The translations under genes were made by a program, and so were the position numbers. Shown one piece after another: positions 3-18,942 of a stretch of DNA of 32,000 nucleotides. A model generated the notes under the pieces. The model was not told the DNA's origin and ran no database searches. It worked only from the letters and a program-made list of their open reading frames with translations. Position 1 is the stretch's first letter, and each line of letters starts with the position of its first letter. Source of the stretch: Planctomycetales bacterium. Lineage in GTDB: Bacteria; 4484-113; JAFGCY01. The stretch lies in contig CP060262.1 in the NCBI GenBank assembly GCA_022646745.1, positions 1,290,001 to 1,322,000 on the forward strand. Reading direction: 5' to 3'.

Positions 3-524
3 ACGCATGGCACCCTCAAGCGCCCCGGCGATGCCGACTGGAAGGAGGAGGAGCAGGTCGTCTTCAACTGGTTCGGTGACAAGTCCGACCCGATTGTGCT
101 GATCCAGTGCCGCGTTGACAGCTTCGAGGATGACCTCGAGCAGAGCGCCTACGACATCTTCTGCGACACCCTGCTTTCCAACTGGCTCAACTCAGATGAC
201 AACTACACCGTGCTTGATCCGCCGCTGCCGCGCAGTGAGGGAGAACCGCGCCGCACGCGCAGCATGCTCGGCTCGCATACCTGGAACCTGATCCAGATTG
301 ACGACCACTCCGATGCCAACGGCGGCAAGATCTACTACTCGATCTTCTGCACCTACAGCGGCAGGGACATCTACACCATCAGCTTCTACTACCTCAATCC
401 GATGACCAAGGAAGACACCCGCGTCAAGGATTTCGGCAAGCCGCTGCTGGAGAGCTTCCGCATCGCCGGTGAGGGCAGTGCCGTGGAGGAGGATGAGATG
501 GCGGCTGAGGACGGCGCTGCCTAG
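3..524 (+). CDS. hypothetical protein, N-terminus outside the window
   Basis: The frame is open from base 3 with no stop before the listed ORF at 96. It ends at TAG 522-524. There is no in-frame ATG near the left edge. No motif recognised. Confidence 0.55.
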   Translation, partial: THGTLKRPGDADWKEEEQVVFNWFGDKSDPIVLIQCRVDSFEDDLEQSAYDIFCDTLLSNWLNSDDNYTVLDPPLPRSEGEPRRTRSMLGSHTWNLIQIDDHSDANGGKIYYSIFCTYSGRDIYTISFYYLNPMTKEDTRVKDFGKPLLESFRIAGEGSAVEEDEMAAEDGAA

Positions 525-1153
525 CGCAGGATCGTTGCCAGCCTCATTTCAAAGTCCTCACGGGTCATCTCCGTCGTGACGTAGCCGACAACCTTGCCGT
601 CACGGTCAAGGAAGAAGGTGGATGGGAATGCGCTCAGGCCGAGCTTTTCCTTGACATCCACGCTGTGGTACATCGGGATCTCAAACCCCTTCTCCTTCCA
701 GAAGTCCTCGGCGGCCTTGCTGTCAACGGAGACCGCGATCATGTCGAACTCGGCCTTGCGCTCCTTGTAGACCTCATTCAGAGCGGGCAGTTCGTCCACG
801 CAGGGCGGGCACCAGTCACCCCAGAAGTTGACAACCAGCGGCCTGCCGTAGAAGGAGCTGATACCAAGCACCTCGCCGTCCGCACGGCGCACGCTGAATT
901 CCGGCATCGAACGCGCTGAGGAAGCACCGTCTGATTCCGATCCACCGCCGGGATTGGCCTGCTCGCCTGCTGCATTCTCTTTGGATGCGGCTGCATCCTG
1001 CTCGAGCTTGTTTTCTGTGACGTAAGCCTGGCCTTCCTGATCTTGAGCGAGGGTTTTTGCATTGCCGGCCTGTTCTTCGGCGGTCTTGTTGCAGGAAACG
1101 GCCAGCAGCAGTATCGCTGCCAGGGAAAGGATAATCAGCTGGATGGCTTTCAT
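521..1153 (-). CDS. TlpA/ResA-like thioredoxin-fold thiol:disulfide oxidoreductase lipoprotein, Cys form (WCPPC)
   Basis: Part of ORF 521..1234. Start moved to ATG 1151-1153, which gives the signal peptide and lipobox MKAIQLIILSLAAILLLAVSC-NK. Active site is NFWGDWCPPC and the cis-Pro loop is AFPSTFFL. Confidence 0.85.
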   Translation of the reverse strand: MKAIQLIILSLAAILLLAVSCNKTAEEQAGNAKTLAQDQEGQAYVTENKLEQDAAASKENAAGEQANPGGGSESDGASSARSMPEFSVRRADGEVLGISSFYGRPLVVNFWGDWCPPCVDELPALNEVYKERKAEFDMIAVSVDSKAAEDFWKEKGFEIPMYHSVDVKEKLGLSAFPSTFFLDRDGKVVGYVTTEMTREDFEMRLATILR

Positions 1154-1257: not shown

Positions 1258-1854
1258 TCAGCGCGTGATTTCCGCCAGCTTGGCTTCGAACTCCTCAGCA
1301 CTGATCTCCCCGAGGTGCTCATCCACCACTTCACCCTCGCGGTTGATGAAGAAGGTATGCGGGATGCCATGCACGCCGTACATGTCACCCCAGTCGCCAT
1401 CCAGTCCCCACGGGAAGGTGTAGCCGCTCTGCTGCATCCAGGGAACCGGTTCCTTCGCGCGGTGCGAGGCCAGGGCCAGCAGCTCGAACTCGCCGCTGTG
1501 CTGCTTGTACATCTGCTCAAACACGGGAAACTCCCGCTTGCAGGGCTCTCACCACTCGCCCCAGAAGTTCAGCACCAGTGGCGTCCCGATGAAACGGGAT
1601 GCCTCCATCGGGCTGCCATCCGGGCTCGTGTATTTCGCTGTCAGCAGCGGGCTGCTCTCTGCCACTTCCGGCACCACTGGGCTGTCGCCGGGCGAGTCCT
1701 TGATAGGCTGGCCTGCAGCAGCTGCATCGTCCGCATTGCCTTGGACCGTGGAATGAACGCCATCCGCTGAGCCGGAAGAGTCCTGTGGCTGTTTATTGCA
1801 GGAAGCCAGAAGCAGCAATGCGATGCAAGGCAGCAATAGCTGGATGCGAATCAT
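1258..1854 (-). CDS. TlpA/ResA-like thioredoxin-fold lipoprotein, predicted selenoprotein (W-U-E-P-C; in-frame TGA at 1549-1551)
   Basis: ORFs 1549..1863 and 1258..1524 are in the same frame and separated only by the TGA. The read-through gives [23 protein letters not shown], which is colinear with the neighbouring WCPPC paralog. The C-terminal part carries the cis-Pro loop GIPHTFFI. Lipobox is LLLASC-NK. Start set at ATG 1852-1854, which has AGGAG 11 nt upstream. GTG at 1863 is an alternative start. Confidence 0.8.
1524..1536 (-). promoter_or_regulatory. putative bacterial SECIS hairpin (mRNA CGGGA-GUU-UCCCG)
   Basis: A 5-bp stem with a GUU loop begins 12 nt 3' of the UGA at 1549-1551. The stem may extend with G-U pairs and bulges. 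Confidence 0.6.
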
Positions 1855-1884
1855 GTAATGCACTGCTCCTGTCGCGATCCGGGC

Positions 1885-2418
1885 TTACTTGATGAGCTTG
1901 GCCAGCTTAGCCTCAAACTCATCGTGTCCCATCATGCCGACCTGCTGGTCAACCAGGTTGCCCTCAGCATCGATGAAGAAGGTATGCGGAATGCCGCTCA
2001 CACCGAACTTCGTGCCGCCATTGACATCGTGCACCATCGGGAAGCTGTAGCCGTTCTGGCTCCAGAAGCCTTCCGCATCCTGCGATGTCGGCGCGGCTAC
2101 TGCCAGCAGCTCGAACTGACCCTGGTGCGCTTCGTAACTTTTCTGGAAATCAGGTAACTCCTGAACGCAGTACCCTCACCAGTCGGCCCAGAAGTTCACG
2201 ACAAGTGGCTTGCCGAGGTACTGGGCCGTGGTCTGGGTCTGTCCACCCGTGGTCTTGAAGCTGAAATCCGTGGCCGGGTTGGGTTGCAGGGCATTGCCCC
2301 CGCTGCTGACCGTGCCACCACCACCGGAACCAGCCTGGTTGGTCTTGTTGCAGGAGAAGCCCAGCCCGGTCACCAGGACCAGGGCCAGCAGCAACATCCT
2401 TGCAGTGATCTGTTGCAT
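1885..2418 (-). CDS. TlpA/ResA-like thioredoxin-fold lipoprotein, predicted selenoprotein (W-U-G-Y-C; in-frame TGA at 2176-2178)
   Basis: ORF 2176..2418 ends in VVNFWADW followed by TGA. The same frame continues GYCVQELPDFQKSYEAHQGQFELLAVA...GIPHTFFIDAEGNLV...AKLIK to TAA at 1885-1887. Total length is 534 nt, which is in frame. Lipobox is LGFSC-NK. Confidence 0.8.
2150..2164 (-). promoter_or_regulatory. putative bacterial SECIS hairpin (mRNA UCAGG-AGUUA-CCUGA)
   Basis: A 5-bp stem with an AGUUA loop begins 11 nt 3' of the UGA at 2176-2178. Confidence 0.6.
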
Positions 2419-2527: not shown

Positions 2528-2556
2528 TTGACTTTAAACTGACTGGTCAGTATAGT
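2528..2556 (+). promoter_or_regulatory. sigma-70-like promoter of tetR (TTGACT, 17 nt, TATAGT)
   Basis: The -35 element TTGACT is at 2528-2533 and the -10 element TATAGT is at 2551-2556, with a 17-nt spacer. The only plausible tetR start (GTG 2563) lies 7 nt after the -10 element, implying a leaderless or near-leaderless mRNA. Confidence 0.6.
2538..2551. promoter_or_regulatory. candidate TetR operator (ACTGAC-tg-GTCAGT)
   Basis: Perfect 6-bp inverted repeat located inside the promoter spacer, directly upstream of tetR. Confidence 0.55.
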
Positions 2557-2562
2557 TTTTCC

Positions 2563-3156
2563 GTGAGTGATTCACCAAAACGCGGGGCGCGCGAGAAGCT
2601 GATAGCTGCGGCGACGGAGTTGATCCGGCGTAACGGCTACAGCGCGACCAGCGTGGACAGCATCGTGGAAGCGGCCGGGGTCAGCAAGGGCAGCTTCTTC
2701 TACCACTTCGAGGGCAAGGAGGCACTGACCACCGCCTGCCTCGAGAACTGGGACCGGATGACCACCGGCATGCTGGCGGACGCGCCATTCATGCAGCTGG
2801 AGGACCCAGTGCAGCGCCTGCAGGGCTGCCTGGAATTCTTCATCATGGTGTTCTCCGATGCCCGCCAGTATCCCTCCTGCCTGGTCGGTACCACGGTGCA
2901 GGAGGTGGCGGACAGCAGCCCGACGCTGCGGGAGGCGGCCCGTACCTGCTTTTCGCATGCAGCCGGGCAGATCGGGGGACTGATCGCCGGGGCCGCGCAG
3001 GCGCGTGGCAGGGAACTGGACAGCATGGGCCTCGCGAACCTGTGGATGGCCACCCTGCAGGGTTCGCTCCTGATGGCCAAGGCCAGCGGGGATCCGGCCC
3101 GGATCCCGGCAAACCTGCGCAGCCAGCGGGACTACATCCTCGGGCTGCTTGGATAG
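2563..3156 (+). CDS. TetR/AcrR family transcriptional regulator
   Basis: N-terminal HTH region REKLIAAATELIRRNGYSATSVDSIVEAAGVSKGSFFYHFEGKEAL. Length is about 197 aa counted from GTG 2563. The longer ORF starting at 2284 overlaps the divergent gene and is rejected. Confidence 0.85.
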   Translation: MSDSPKRGAREKLIAAATELIRRNGYSATSVDSIVEAAGVSKGSFFYHFEGKEALTTACLENWDRMTTGMLADAPFMQLEDPVQRLQGCLEFFIMVFSDARQYPSCLVGTTVQEVADSSPTLREAARTCFSHAAGQIGGLIAGAAQARGRELDSMGLANLWMATLQGSLLMAKASGDPARIPANLRSQRDYILGLLG

Positions 3157-3821: not shown

Positions 3822-3999
3822 GTAGCGGTGGCGCCTTGCGCCAATTGAGAGAGACTGCCGAATCATTCAGATTCAGACATTCCCGGCAGGTGGTGCTTGT
3901 CATTGCATGCGCGATGAACCAATCAGGGATCGCTTATATGAAGACGGTCACAGAACTACGGGAGATGCCCTTTCAATTGGCGCGAGGCGCCACCGCTAC
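3822..3999. repeat. 26-bp inverted repeat enclosing 126 nt
   Basis: Left arm 3822-3847 (gtagcggtggcgccttgcgccaattg) matches right arm 3974-3999 (caattggcgcgaggcgccaccgctac) at 25 of 26 positions. Confidence 0.8.
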
Positions 4000-4016
4000 A
4001 AATATTCGCTCGCTGA

Positions 4017-4247
4017 TTGCGCGATGCATCTTCATGGGCAGCGATGCAACTTCAGCGCGACCCGGGTGCGCGGATGCGCAGCCGCAGCGCCAGACCGAAT
4101 TCTCTTACCCGCTCATGCAAGCATTCGCGGGTCTGCAAACCGGAGCGAAGCAAGCTTCACTCCTCTTGCCCGATGCATCTTCATGGGCAGCGATGCAACT
4201 TCAGCGCGACCCGGATGCGCGGATGCGCAGCCGCAGCGCCAGACCGA
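4017..4247 (+). repeat. two copies of an 82-bp direct repeat, period 149 bp
   Basis: Copy 1 is 4017-4098 and copy 2 is 4166-4247. They differ at 2 positions. The ORFs listed here (3836..4336, 3907..4317) merely translate the repeat. Confidence 0.85.
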
Positions 4248-4285
4248 TGAGTGCTTGCACGAAGCGGCAGCCAGAAAAGGAAGAA

Positions 4286-4315
4286 CCCCGCATTTCTGCG
4301 GGGTCTTTCTCTTTT
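4286..4315 (+). terminator. rho-independent terminator
   Basis: Hairpin ccccgca-tttc-tgcgggg followed by tctttctctttt. Confidence 0.7.
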
Positions 4316-4426
4316 AAAATCCGCTCTTCTTTTTGAGCACTGCGTTGTACAGAGATGATACAGGTTCTGACCATCCGTGTGGTTTGGCCTGCGTAAAATG
4401 ACAACCAATACAAAGTAAAAAATTAA

Positions 4427-10200: not shown

Positions 10201-10374
10201 GTGGACCCCCATTGGCGATATGCCGTACATATAGATGTTATGGCAGCCGGGGTGAAAGGTCAATGCACAGTGGGCGGAGGAAGCAGAGAGCTGCAAGCAG
10301 ACACGGCCTGCGAATATCATGGTCTGCTTTCAGCTATCTGATTTCTGCATGCCCTGCATGGCATAATCACTGCC

Positions 10375-11808
10375 GTGGGCGCAAAGCTTAGCCAGGAACA
10401 GCAACTGGAGGAACTCACGGCGCAGGAAGCCAAACTGCGCGCTTCCGGCAGTCCGCCGGATCCAGAGAAGCGCATGATGCGCGCTGGCATCCTGGTCAGG
10501 CTCGGCCGCTACGATGAGGCACACAACGCGCTCGATTCGGCCGCTGCCGCCTGTACGGAGCTGGGCATCCCTGAGCTGGCCCGCATCATGAACATCCGCG
10601 CTGATGTGCTGCGCCTGCAGGGGCTGTACTCGGAAGCCCTGGCAAGCATCCAGGCTGCGGAACAGCGCTCGCTGGCAGATGAGCACTTCTTCCCCGGTAT
10701 CTACAACACCTGGGCGAACATCCTTGCTGACCTGGGCCGTCCCGGACAGGCCCTGAAGCTGATCCAGCGCGCCGGGGACTATTTTGCGGGCGAGGGCATT
10801 GCCTTCCCGCCACCGTTGGCCACGAATCGTGGCAACATGCTCAAGTCCCTGGGCCGCTACCATGAAGCGCTTGAGGCATATGACCATGCCCGCCGCCTGT
10901 ACGAGGAACAGGACAAGCCTGTGTTCCCAGGCATCTATTCCATGATCGGCCTGACCCTGATCCTGCAGGAGAAGTACGCAGAGGCCCTGTTGCCGCTGGA
11001 TGAATCGGAACGCTTCTGCCATGAGCAGGGCTGGGCACCGTGGTTCGGCATCGACATGTACCGTGGTGTGTGTTTCGGCAAGCTGAAGCGGTACGGGGAT
11101 GCCATGGCGGCTTATTCCCGTGCCCAGGCGATCCTTGATGAACAGCGGGTGATCGGGGAGTGGGAACTTAATTTCAGCCGGGCAATCACGATGTACGAGG
11201 CCGGACATGCAAGCGAGGCCATAGCGGAGGTTTACGAGGCCATCGCCCTCTGCGCCAAACTGGGCGTGGACCAGCCGGCGTTCATGATGGAGACCCTGCA
11301 GGACTGGTTGTCACCGCAGCCGGAGAAGCTGGCAGCGCAGCAGCAGGCCAGCCAGCCCGCTCCAATAGAGCCGGTGCCCGACAGCGAGAAGCGCTACGAT
11401 GCATTCCTGAGCTACCGCCGCGATCCCGGCCTGCCCTATTCAATGCTGATCAAGACGCACCTGGACATGAATGGGCGCAGCATCTTCCGCGACCAGGAGG
11501 ACCTGCATAAGGGCCAGTTCCACGAGGACATCATCGATGCCATCCGCCACAGCCGGCACATGATCGTGCTGATGACGCCGGGTTTCTTCGAGCGCTGCAG
11601 CAATCCCGAAGACGTGCTTCGCAATGAGATCTCCACCGCGCTGCGCTGCGGCACGCACATCATCCCGCTGATGATGGAGGGGTTCAGCTGGCCGCAGCCA
11701 GCTGATTTGCCGGCGGATATCCGCGACATCTGCAAGGTGAATGCGATGTCCTATTCCAGCGAGTTCTTCAGCGCCTTCATTGACAAACTGCTGCGCTGGA
11801 TGGGCTGA
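10375..11808 (+). CDS. TPR-repeat protein with a C-terminal TIR domain
   Basis: About 300 aa of TPR-like repeats (e.g. LGRYDEAHNALDSA, LGRYHEALEAYDHA, LKRYGDAMAAYSRA), then a Q/P-rich linker. The TIR region reads YDAFLSYRRDPG...HMIVLMTPGFFERCSNPEDVLRNEISTAL. The GTG start at 10375 is uncertain. Confidence 0.8.
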   Translation: MGAKLSQEQQLEELTAQEAKLRASGSPPDPEKRMMRAGILVRLGRYDEAHNALDSAAAACTELGIPELARIMNIRADVLRLQGLYSEALASIQAAEQRSLADEHFFPGIYNTWANILADLGRPGQALKLIQRAGDYFAGEGIAFPPPLATNRGNMLKSLGRYHEALEAYDHARRLYEEQDKPVFPGIYSMIGLTLILQEKYAEALLPLDESERFCHEQGWAPWFGIDMYRGVCFGKLKRYGDAMAAYSRAQAILDEQRVIGEWELNFSRAITMYEAGHASEAIAEVYEAIALCAKLGVDQPAFMMETLQDWLSPQPEKLAAQQQASQPAPIEPVPDSEKRYDAFLSYRRDPGLPYSMLIKTHLDMNGRSIFRDQEDLHKGQFHEDIIDAIRHSRHMIVLMTPGFFERCSNPEDVLRNEISTALRCGTHIIPLMMEGFSWPQPADLPADIRDICKVNAMSYSSEFFSAFIDKLLRWMG

Positions 11809-16884: not shown

Positions 16885-17904
16885 ATGGATTCCGAGATTC
16901 GCTACAGCCGCCTTTCCCGCTATGCCCCGCTCGGGCGGGTGCTGCCCGCCTGGCAGCAAAGCCACTGTGTGGTGATCGGGCTCGGCGGGCTGGGCAGTGG
17001 GCTCTCCATGCAGCTCACACGTTTCGGTGTGCGGCGTATCACCCTGATTGACCGCGACACAGTCGGCTTCGAGAACCTCGGGCACCAGAGCCTGTTCACG
17101 ACAGCGCATGCTGAAGCTGGCCTGCCCAAGGTGCAGGCTGCTGCCGGAATGCTGGCGGCGATCAACCCGGCGGTCGAACTGGACCCGCAGTTCGCCGACC
17201 TGAGCCGCCACAATATCCGCGAGCTGTGTGCAGGAGCGACGCTGCTGTTCGACGGGCTGGATTCCTACTTCACCCGCTACATCGTCAACGACTATGCGCT
17301 GCAGTCTTCCACCCCATGGCTGTCCGCCGGCGTGGTGCGCGGTGAACTGAGCATGCGAGCGGTGGTACCGGGCGTGACCGGCTGCCTGCGCTGCCTGCTG
17401 CCGGATCCGCCGCCGCCGGGCAGTGTGCCCACCTGCAGCGCGGAAGGCGTGTTCGGCCCGCTGCTCAGTGTTGCCAACGCGATCCAGCTGGAGCAGGCTG
17501 GCCGCTTCCTCGCAGGCGAGTTCACTGCCGACGATGATGCAATGTATTCTCTCGAGCTGCCGGACTGGCGCATCCGCCGCCTGCAGCTCAATGGTCCTGC
17601 GCAGACCTGCCGGGCCTGCAGTGGCAGCTACGATTTCCTCTCCGGCCGCTTCGACCAGCAGGCCGCCGCCGCCTGCAGTGACGGCCGCTTTGAGCTGGAG
17701 CTGGGCAGTGCGATCGACATCGAAGGCCTGGCGGCAGGCCTGTCCGCCGAGACTGGCTGGGAAGTCCGGCCCAACCGCTGGTGCCTCGTCGCCGACCATG
17801 GCGCCGAGCGCTACACAGTCTTCCCGAACGGCCGGCTTGTGCTCAGTGGAACACAGGATGGATCACGCCTGAATCATTTTGCCGCCCACTGGCTCGGCCT
17901 CTGA
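16885..17904 (+). CDS. ThiF/MoeB/HesA-family E1-like adenylyltransferase with a C-terminal extension of about 95 aa
   Basis: RYSRLSRY...VVIGLGGLGSGLSMQLTRFGVRRITLIDRDTV..NL.HQ. Two Cys pairs are present, CLRC and CRAC. The tail after the second pair is not recognisable. Confidence 0.8.
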   Translation: MDSEIRYSRLSRYAPLGRVLPAWQQSHCVVIGLGGLGSGLSMQLTRFGVRRITLIDRDTVGFENLGHQSLFTTAHAEAGLPKVQAAAGMLAAINPAVELDPQFADLSRHNIRELCAGATLLFDGLDSYFTRYIVNDYALQSSTPWLSAGVVRGELSMRAVVPGVTGCLRCLLPDPPPPGSVPTCSAEGVFGPLLSVANAIQLEQAGRFLAGEFTADDDAMYSLELPDWRIRRLQLNGPAQTCRACSGSYDFLSGRFDQQAAAACSDGRFELELGSAIDIEGLAAGLSAETGWEVRPNRWCLVADHGAERYTVFPNGRLVLSGTQDGSRLNHFAAHWLGL

Positions 17905-17944
17905 TGCAGTGTTACCATGTAGCGGGCATTGAGAGGATATACAG

Positions 17945-18322
17945 ATGAGAATATTCAGTTGTTTCCTGCTGCTGGCCACCGCCGCACTGCTGTTCGGCTG
18001 TCCCAGCCCTGATTCACAGAAGAAGGTGCAGGAGGCCGCGAAGGTTCCCGGGCTGGAAGAGGCTGTGATTGCCAAGGACCGCTCGCTGCAGGCCGCGATC
18101 GAGATGAGCTGGAAGGCTGACGTGGAACTGCTGCAGGAGCAGCTCGCCGTGGAGGAGGTGCACGCCGGCAAGGTACGCATCACCGGCATCGTCTCGCGTG
18201 AGAAGCTCAAGGAACGCGCCGAGGCGATCGCCCGCGACCAGGAAGGCGTCGTTGACGTGATCAGCACGATCACCGTCGATGAAAGCCTGAAGGACAAGCG
18301 GATTTCCCTCGACGATATGTGA
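17945..18322 (+). CDS. BON-domain lipoprotein
   Basis: Lipobox ALLFGC. The BON-like region reads VHAGKVRITGIVSREKLKERAEAIARDQEGVVDVISTITV. Confidence 0.7.
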   Translation: MRIFSCFLLLATAALLFGCPSPDSQKKVQEAAKVPGLEEAVIAKDRSLQAAIEMSWKADVELLQEQLAVEEVHAGKVRITGIVSREKLKERAEAIARDQEGVVDVISTITVDESLKDKRISLDDM

Positions 18323-18381
18323 GCCACCCGGCTTATTAATGATATTGTCTTATCATCTAATCCAAGGATGAGGTGCGATTG

Positions 18382-18942
18382 ATGCGCAGACAGTTGATCG
18401 GAAGCTTCCTGCTGCTGGTGACGGTCCTGCTCGTGTTCTCCGCCTGCAACAAGCAGCAGGGCGAGAACGCGGACAGCGGCAATGGCCAGCAGGTGGCGGA
18501 AGCACCCGCTCCCGTGCGGGAAACCACCGGTGGCAATGTACCGAGCGGCCAGCCGGATCTTACCTATGCCACCTTTGCCGGCGGCAGCGGCAAGGTCAGC
18601 GCCCTGGCCGGCAAGCCCGCCGTGGTAAACATGTGGGCAGTCTGGTGAACTTCCTGTATTCAGGAGATTCCTGAATTCCTCGAATTGCGTGAAGAAACCG
18701 GCGACAAGTTCAACTGGCTGTTCGTGGCAACGGATGACATCGGTGACCCGAAGCAGCTTGTCACTGACAAGGGCTGGCCAGCCGAGGTGTTTGCGATGAG
18801 CGAGGGGGGCGACATCAAGGACTTCCACGACGGCGCTAACCCGACCACCTACTTCTATGATTCCAGTGGGAAGCAGGTTGACAAGATGGTTGGCTCATTG
18901 ACCCTCGCAGAACTGAGGGAGAAGGTCGCTGGCCTGAACTAG
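18382..18942 (+). CDS. TlpA/ResA-like thioredoxin-fold lipoprotein, predicted selenoprotein (W-U-T-S-C; in-frame TGA at 18646-18648)
   Basis: ORF 18373..18648 ends in VVNMWAVW followed by TGA. The same frame continues TSCIQEIPEFLELREETGDKF...NPTTYFYDSSGKQV to TAG at 18940-18942, and ORF 18685..18942 is in that frame. Lipobox is VFSAC-NK. ATG 18382 has GAGG 8 nt upstream. Confidence 0.8.
18658..18676 (+). promoter_or_regulatory. putative bacterial SECIS hairpin (AUUCAGG-AGAUU-CCUGAAU)
   Basis: A perfect 7-bp stem with a 5-nt loop begins 9 nt after the UGA. Confidence 0.65.

Follow-up and report, generated by a model that had tools for sequence, protein, structure and literature searches.

Thioredoxin-fold selenoproteins with a UxxC motif, in which U stands for selenocysteine (Sec), have been known since 2004-2006, and the Prx-like and thiol:disulfide interchange families of such proteins were reportedly described by Kryukov, Zhang and Gladyshev. 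Two predicted UxxC families are listed as "Prx-like thiol:disulfide oxidoreductase" (PF00578) and "Thiol:disulfide interchange protein" (PF13098) (PMC1794560, Table 1; PMC13188914), and conversions of cysteine (Cys) to Sec are frequent among these bacterial selenoprotein families (PMC1794560, PMC13188914). The gene considered here, termed g1, lies in a 32,000-nucleotide (nt) stretch of DNA from a Planctomycetales bacterium (contig CP060262.1 of assembly GCA_022646745.1, positions 1,290,001 to 1,322,000; hereafter the window). Its reading frame is interrupted by a UGA that is very probably decoded as Sec, in a TlpA/ResA-like lipoprotein gene with a compact, covarying Sec insertion sequence (SECIS). 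With the families above, g1 would share a thioredoxin fold, Sec in place of the first Cys of CxxC, common Cys homologues and a SECIS within the open reading frame (ORF) just past the UGA; as points of likeness to the type members WP_010940744.1 and WP_011366075.1, the Pfam domain and the UxxC motif were verified. Deltaproteobacteria (Geobacter, Syntrophus) and marine metagenomes were the main sources from which those families were defined, whereas the g1 clade comes from metagenome-assembled genomes (MAGs) labelled UBP7 or Planctomycetales and, unlike those families, consists of predicted lipoproteins whose Sec and Cys genes stand in tandem beside those for TetR and DinB.

The g1 frame opens with an ATG at position 2418 of the minus strand, downstream of a Shine-Dalgarno-like GAGGUGA. 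It reads MQQITARMLLLALVLVTGLGFSCNK...KPLVVNFWADW up to a TGA at 2178-2176, and continues as GYCVQELPDFQ...GIPHTFFIDAEGNLV...AKLIK to a TAA stop at 1887-1885, so that the peptide spanning the UGA is VVNFWADW-U-GYCVQELPDFQK. A preliminary description of this locus had placed the VVNFWADW end of an ORF directly before a TGA at 2176-2178, and had counted 96 further open codons down to the TAA; both statements are exact, base for base, and the minus-strand ORF in question is 2418..2179. Gene callers in public assemblies break the locus into ORFs of 80 and 50 amino acids (aa). As the evidence below indicates, g1 is one gene rather than an ORF of 80 codons with junk behind it.

With U written as C, the full g1 product matches the Pfam families AhpC-TSA (9.8e-21) and Redoxin (5.8e-20) over residues 47-165, a span that includes the UGA. 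Both scores exceed the gathering thresholds (PF00578 AhpC-TSA, 74.4 vs 26 bits; PF08534 Redoxin, 72.0 vs 26.6); PF00578 is the top match, and PF13098 matches too. The preliminary description had made its case depend on thioredoxin-fold similarity in the part after the UGA (1885-2175), and this part alone matches AhpC-TSA at 7.5e-9 and Redoxin at 1.6e-8. The nearest solved structure is 3kcm, a thioredoxin-family protein of Geobacter (5.5e-19), followed by ResA, StoA, CycY and DsbE-like proteins; the matches, among them 3kcm, 1st9, 3erw, 1kng, 2yp6 and 4hqs, range from 5.5e-19 to 3e-9. We take 2yp6 and 4hqs to be the pneumococcal Etrx lipoproteins.

The structure alignments place the UGA at the first Cys of WCxxC. 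FWADW-U-GY-C of g1 aligns with the active sites of 3kcm and 3hdc, and its GIPHTF aligns with GVPETF of 3kcm and LPDTF of 3hdc. An equivalent of Cys84 is found in every homologue compared. Because the resolving Cys and the cis-proline loop both follow the UGA, termination there would leave an 80-residue product with neither redox centre nor fold. Curated NCBIfam models reach g1 below their cut-offs (ResA NF002854, 72.8 vs 170; TlpA NF047696, 50.1 vs 230; DsbE TIGR00385, 50.2 vs 123). Judged by these scores, g1 is related to the ResA, TlpA and DsbE subfamilies and a member of none. The split ORFs in public annotations would follow from the fact that no curated model captures the g1 clade.

A protein search identified a Cys-containing relative (P0001, ~63% identical) on L001, a 134-kb metagenome contig on which DinB, a TetR regulator and an unrelated gene, in that order, are followed by three thioredoxin-like genes. 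The central one of the three, which callers also split, reads FWADW-TGA-GGG-TAC-TGC-GTC-CAG-GAG-TTA-CCT-GG, or W-U-G-Y-C. The pattern N-F-W-[AG]-[DE]-W-TGA-x-x-C was then scanned over 185,579 species genomes and gave 14 matches, compared with about one expected by chance, an estimate derived from the degeneracy of the pattern. Thioredoxin-fold ORFs that remain open across the TGA account for 11 of the 14; the other three (L007, L010, L012) have no ORF and are chance matches. A narrower scan of metagenomes added three loci only.

Five orthologues of g1 were obtained, each 68-70% identical over the domain: L001B, L003 (MAG UBP7 HKST-UBA03, JAGRNT01), L005 (MAG Planctomycetales Ww346, JAHEFU01), L008 (MAG AC1.30, JAWLAZ01) and L020. 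All five have TGA at the same codon, an ungapped tail of 96 codons and a stop in the same place, with no insertions or deletions. Comparison of g1 with these orthologues past the UGA (Nei-Gojobori method) gives proportions of synonymous (pS) and non-synonymous (pN) differences of 0.56-0.59 and 0.17-0.23, and ratios of non-synonymous to synonymous substitution rates (dN/dS) of 0.17-0.24. The ratio for the 32 codons before the UGA is 0.08-0.37; constraint downstream is thus no weaker. In the +1 frame, used as a control, pS is at most equal to pN and the synonymous excess is gone. The close pair L003 and L008 differs past the UGA at 12 synonymous and 5 non-synonymous sites. The check for coding constraint that the preliminary description had called for in 1885-2175 therefore points to purifying selection, and the frame past the UGA is coding.

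Cys and Sec forms occupy the same position in this family. The TGA at 2176-2178 aligns with TGC in g3, a paralogue in the window, and in eight other Cys paralogues, the closest of which (L001A) is 63.6% identical and has WCPPC. Two further thioredoxin-fold genes of the window, g2 and a fourth gene far from the tandem cluster, have TGA where g1 has it.

These data bear directly on the possibility that g1 is a pseudogene, in which a recent nonsense mutation or an assembly error has left a downstream frame that is decaying or untranslated. The small ORFs called in public assemblies and the unremarkable folding energy of the downstream hairpin, taken alone, would suit such an origin, yet the TGA is kept in all five orthologues at this level of divergence, and 96 codons are preserved free of indels and extra stops at the dN/dS values given above. 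The argument of the preliminary description that a UGA at the same active-site position in a paralogue speaks against a random nonsense mutation is borne out, since two paralogues of the same genome and five orthologues have it at this catalytic position. Moreover, several metagenomes yielded the identical window sequence in independent assemblies (L016-L019), so that an error in reads or assembly is excluded. The orthologue and selection data effectively refute this explanation, to which we give a very small residual probability.

A second alternative is that the locus makes two products, an 80-residue lipopeptide and a separately initiated C-terminal fragment, for example from the ATG at 2037. 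This proposal draws on an ATG-initiated ORF of 50 aa (1885-2037) that public assemblies call as a gene. Against it, the 46 codons between the UGA and ATG 2037 include Cys84 and are conserved and under purifying selection, and it would split the fold through the active-site helix, so that neither fragment could form a thioredoxin fold. We consider it highly improbable.

The minimal SECIS of Escherichia coli fdhF is a 17-nt upper stem-loop that alone is essential, and SelB contacts its U17, G23 and U24 (PMC8659212). A published consensus for bacterial SECIS (bSECIS) elements comprises an apical loop of 3-9 nt, an upper stem of 4-16 bp, a folding energy of -7.5 kcal/mol or lower, a G in the first two loop positions (mostly G[G/U]) and a spacing of 16-37 nt between UGA and loop (PMC13188914). 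In g1, an 11-nt spacer (GGGUACUGCGU, 2175-2165) separates the UGA from a potential hairpin, UCAGG-AGUUA-CCUGA, at 2164-2150 of the minus strand. This hairpin was already given correctly in the preliminary description, as were its G and U at nt 21-23: if numbering starts at the U of UGA, nt 21 is the loop G and nt 22-23 are U's. The apical loop lies 16 nt from the UGA, and G at loop position 2 is followed by UU. RNAalifold, unaided, predicts the same hairpin with an additional lower CUG/CAG stem; the latter consists of conserved Cys and Gln codons and for this reason has no independent support value. With a 5-nt loop (AGUUA), 5 bp, 16-nt spacing and -7.8 kcal/mol including the lower stem, the g1 element falls within the bSECIS consensus, at or near the lower bound of every criterion. 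Like the fdhF element, it resides within the ORF, starts 11 nt past the UGA, and presents G and then U in a small apical loop. It differs in having 15 nt instead of 17, no bulged U, G-U at nt 21-22 instead of 23-24 and a stem of only 5 bp.

The hairpin was compared between Sec and Cys forms in a fixed register (11-nt spacer, 5-nt arm, 5-nt loop, 5-nt arm). All UGA forms of the clade (12/12) make 4-5 of the 5 pairs around an AGUUN loop. The Cys paralogues from the same loci (9/9) make 1-2 of the 5, with the loop sequences AGCUG, AACUG, AGUUC or AAAUG. All nine encode the same x-E-[L/F/M]-P peptide and yet lack the hairpin. Because the same peptide is encoded at these codons, the Cys paralogues constitute a built-in negative control.

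In the alignment of the 12 Sec forms (A1), 96.7% of cells are paired compared with 69.1% after column shuffling, and 15 cells show double changes compared with 5.2 expected; none of 500 shuffles reached either observed value. Controls in which the register was slid along A1 give 33-63% paired. Compensatory changes occur in three of the five pairs: columns 21-35 are C-G, U-A, G-C or G-U, columns 22-34 are C-G or G-C, and columns 23-33 are A-U, C-G or G-C. The corresponding alignment of the nine Cys paralogues (A2) is 35.6% paired and shows no covariation. It is the comparison with relatives that is decisive for the hairpin, and folding energy is not the argument.

Counts within the window agree with this comparison. 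Among its 1120 TGA triplets, 12 (1.1%) are followed by 5/5 pairs in this exact register, and only 5 (0.45%) by 5/5 pairs with G at loop position 2. Three of these five, at 2176, 1549 and 18646, are the in-frame TGAs of thioredoxin-fold genes. Taken together, the register counts and the comparative data put the UGA-hairpin feature of g1 far beyond chance. The genome has no fewer than three thioredoxin-fold genes interrupted by UGA, all with this hairpin offset, and it is hard to see how anything but active Sec decoding would account for them. The codons chosen add an independent argument for the element. Across the nine genes of the window that Pfam confirms, a single one of 414 Leu codons is UUA, and 7.9% of the Pro codons are CCU, and g1 places UUA where the loop needs GUU, and CCU where the stem needs U opposite A.

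Several observations weigh against Sec decoding at g1. The 12 aligned sequences are related, so that the shuffle figures overstate their independence and are not probabilities, and the two inner G-C pairs are invariant, being dictated by Glu and Pro codons, and are thus uninformative; the six distinct stem variants and the contrast between Sec and Cys forms are independent of the shuffle figures. Folding of the g1 segment is unremarkable (z = +0.68 for 59 nt and +0.64 for 91 nt). Its hairpin is the weakest of the 12 Sec forms, at -5.6 kcal/mol for the 5 bp and -7.8 with the lower stem, and the 40-nt segment that contains it has a different minimum-free-energy fold. The bulged U known from E. 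coli is missing, and both spacing and stem length are the shortest allowed. At gathering threshold, an Rfam search of the whole window gave no match and no family fitting the hairpin. Finally, no selA, selB, selD or tRNA-Sec was found in the window, in the adjoining ~5 kb on the left and ~7 kb on the right, or in related loci, by Pfam searches of 24 large ORFs of the window and tRNA scans of the window and 17 loci; the flanks were reached through identical proteins in other assemblies (L016 on the left, L023-L025 on the right). When 1200-2500 was searched against Rfam at E values up to 10, all matches were due to chance, among them a "tRNA-Sec" match of 17 bits (gathering score 47) inside the g1 coding region. 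Complete sel gene sets have been reported in some Planctomycetes (PMC4807772), which lends plausibility to such machinery here and is no evidence about this particular genome. Such doubt as remains about Sec decoding concerns this machinery.

The absence of the machinery from the sequence searched, and a minimal hairpin devoid of the bulged U to which SelB binds in the E. coli element (PMC8659212), would also suit a recoding of the UGA that does not involve Sec, in which a suppressor or near-cognate tRNA inserts, for example, Trp, Cys or Gly, with the hairpin acting as a generic read-through stimulator or pause site. This explanation must contend with the position of the UGA, which coincides with the nucleophilic Cys of CxxC, the classic site of Cys/Sec exchange in UxxC families (PMC1794560, PMC13188914), and where the redox centre would be lost if residue 81 were Trp or Gly. 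It must also contend with a conserved G-U, a small apical loop and a 16-nt spacing that match the bSECIS consensus. In addition, UGA is in use as a normal terminator: TGA ends four of the nine Pfam-confirmed genes of the window (TPR-TIR, ThiF and both PKD proteins), and also g2. Its use in these four genes excludes a global reassignment of UGA to sense, and recoding at g1 by an amino acid other than Sec is unlikely.

If UGA codon 81 is decoded as Sec, the 15-nt hairpin, with its 5-bp stem and AGUUA loop, would serve as a compact bacterial SECIS that brings SelB-GTP-Sec-tRNA(Sec) to a ribosome pausing on this codon. A lipobox-like ending (...SCNK or ...ACNK) after a hydrophobic signal is common to g1, g2, g3, the fourth gene and the orthologues, and this motif predicts a lipid-anchored, extracytoplasmic product. 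After export, the prolipoprotein of 177 residues would thus presumably receive its lipid at Cys23 and be anchored on the periplasmic side. There its TlpA/ResA-type domain, with U81-G-Y-C84, may cycle between selenenylsulfide and selenol/thiol states as a thiol-disulfide oxidoreductase. Most likely it would act as a reductase that is recharged by a membrane electron carrier of the CcdA/DsbD type, both the direction of the reaction and the donor being our inference.

This proposed role has parallels among Cys-type proteins. TlpA, ResA, StoA, CcmG (DsbE), CycY and pneumococcal Etrx resemble the g1 product in fold, in the pattern F-W-A-x-W-[C]-x-x-C ... G-[IV]-P-x-T-F, and in the extracytoplasmic anchoring predicted for it. 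Unlike them, g1 would use Sec as the nucleophile, and its neighbourhood has no genes for cytochrome-c maturation or Sco proteins. The ResA-like WAxxUGC selenoproteins of NF041054 are likewise TlpA/ResA-like; they differ in having a U-G-C (UxC) motif and ~354 aa, compared with U-G-Y-C and 177 aa in g1. Their model matches g1 weakly (2.8e-10; 40 bits vs a cut-off of 300), and g1 is not a member.

In the window, g1 would represent the conserved "B" type in a row of tandem Sec and Cys paralogues beside genes for a TetR regulator and a DinB-family protein (Table 1). The composition is A(Cys)-B(Sec)-C(Cys) in L001 and L008, B(Sec)-C(Cys) in L005 and B(Sec)-g2(Sec)-C(Cys) in the window, where A is absent and the divergent g2 lies between B and C. 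The g2 gene has a hairpin of its own, GCGGG-AGUUU-CCCGU, at 1537-1523, likewise 11 nt past the UGA. In the corresponding register, g3 has no hairpin (2/5 pairs, loop AACUG). No other member is more than 46.5% identical to g2 (U-E-P-C), which looks like an additional Sec paralogue specific to this lineage.

Table 1. Positions in the window of g1, its parts and related features (a strand is given where one applies)
Feature	Position	Strand	Remarks
g1, whole coding sequence of the candidate selenoprotein	1885..2418	-	177 residues; predicted Sec codon 81; U81-G-Y-C84 motif
In-frame TGA, proposed Sec codon, residue 81	2176..2178	-	N-terminal nucleophilic position of WCxxC
TGC, Cys84, resolving cysteine of UxxC	2167..2169	-	Downstream of UGA; invariant columns 16-18 of alignment A1
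CCG, Pro144 of G-I-P-H-T-F, cis-proline loop	1987..1989	-	63 codons past UGA; homologues keep Pro
Signal peptide and lipobox, MQQITARMLLLALVLVTGLGFS followed by C23-NK	2350..2418	-	Read from sequence
SECIS-like upper stem-loop	2150..2164	-	UCAGG 2164-2160, AGUUA 2159-2155, CCUGA 2154-2150
Extended element: 3-bp lower stem (CUG 2170-2168 / CAG 2145-2143), internal loop, upper hairpin	2143..2170	-	RNAalifold consensus
g2, second candidate Sec paralogue	1258..1863 (probable start ATG 1854)	-	FWGEW-U-EPC, TGA 1549-1551; own stop TGA 1258-1260
g3, Cys paralogue, third cluster gene	521..1153	-	FWGDW-TGC-CCG-CCC-TGC (W-C-PPC)
TetR-family regulator, divergent	2572..3156	+	Pfam TetR_N 3.2e-16; syntenic with cluster in relatives
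Palindrome ACTGAC-NN-GTCAGT (ACTGACTGGTCAGT)	2538..2551		g1/tetR intergenic region
Fourth thioredoxin-fold lipoprotein gene, third UxxC candidate	18383..18942	+	KPAVVNMWAVW-U-TSC-IQEIPEF, TGA 18646-18648

The regulatory surroundings are conserved as well. AC1.30 (L008) has, in order, OTCase, a 227-aa gene, a C-type gene (Cys), B (Sec, the g1 orthologue), an A-type gene (Cys), the palindrome, TetR and DinB; the window TetR and DinB proteins are 75% and 73% identical to these neighbours, and TetR also lies by the cluster in L001. In the window, the palindrome overlaps a sigma70-like promoter, TTGACT-17-TATAGT (2528-2556, plus strand), and L003 (1360-1373) and L008 (4721-4734) have it as well, upstream of the first cluster gene. 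From this placement, the palindrome is probably a TetR operator for the cluster, for tetR or for both.

Two other regions of the window were noticed in passing. By eye, a direct repeat of ~130 bp is seen in 3836-4340 (CGCTGAAGTTGCATCGCTGCCCATGAAGATGCATCG near 4030-4060 and 4165-4200), in an apparently non-coding region between DinB and a gene for a 493-aa membrane protein. At 10375-11808 (plus strand) lies a gene for a TPR-repeat protein with a C-terminal TIR_2 domain (3.7e-8), overlapping the antisense ORF 10330..11208; its product may be defence-related.

The fourth thioredoxin-fold gene was found by scanning for TGAs with at least 60 open codons on each side and a high G+C content at third codon positions. 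Its product matches AhpC-TSA across the UGA (6.8e-9) and begins with a signal that ends ...LLVFSAC. The hairpin UCAGG-AGAUU-CCUGA (18660-18674) follows its UGA by 11 nt and can be extended to 8 bp. The gene is antisense within ORF 17863..18828 (minus strand), which itself has no Pfam match.

Further UxxC genes turned up in other genomes. Three MAGs (L002, Verrucomicrobiales; L011, Gemmatimonadaceae; L014, Pirellulaceae) represent a separate clade of larger thioredoxin-fold proteins with W-U-G-P-C-R-x-M-[YL]-P-x-E-R-S-L, and L002 has two such W-U-G-P-C genes in tandem. Their conserved hairpin lies farther downstream, as in CGAGC-GGUC-GCUCG ~27 nt past the UGA, which suggests that a second SECIS type serves this related family. 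Another Planctomycetota architecture of apparent UxxC selenoproteins occurs in L006 (Planctomycetia MAG, position 2278) and L009 (Planctomycetota MAG, position 1265), in which a Thioredoxin_7-like N-terminal domain with NFWAEW-U-[GH]-[WF]-C-KKLEADS is fused to a long TPR-like C-terminal part, with 273-316 residues in all after the UGA. In L015 (Terriglobia MAG, position 2422), a protein of ~720 residues has the C-terminal thioredoxin domain FLNFWAEW-U-SFC-REELP. Its hairpin, CGAGG-AGUUG-CCUCG, has the 11-nt offset and the hairpin type of g1, and the protein is only distantly related.

With respect to known selenoproteins, g1 adds a new, unannotated member to the established UxxC group and changes no concept. 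It is mis-annotated as two small ORFs in every public assembly examined, and as a result a catalytic selenoprotein would be invisible to downstream analyses. Together with two more UxxC genes in the same 32 kb, g1 would mark a poorly known, uncultured lineage as selenium-dependent. The compact, covarying SECIS variant, which comes with a negative control in its Cys paralogues, could be used to train selenoprotein finders. The cluster also offers a natural tandem system of Sec and Cys paralogues in which to ask what an extracytoplasmic thiol-disulfide oxidoreductase gains from Sec.

A broader possibility, which we advance tentatively and hold to be rather doubtful, is that an uncultured lineage near the UBP7, AC1.30 and Planctomycetales MAGs has an expanded set of exported, lipid-anchored UxxC proteins that depends on an unusually minimal class of SECIS. 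If so, this class would be a 15-nt hairpin at the shortest permitted spacing, built wholly from the codons of x-E-[L/F]-P, a peptide that the Cys paralogues share. Since both forms encode this peptide from the start, a switch from Cys to Sec would then need only TGY to TGA and a handful of largely synonymous changes, which would explain the recurrent tandem pairs of Sec and Cys paralogues. The TetR-controlled cluster could be a backup pair, one selenium-dependent and one selenium-independent, for periplasmic redox defence.

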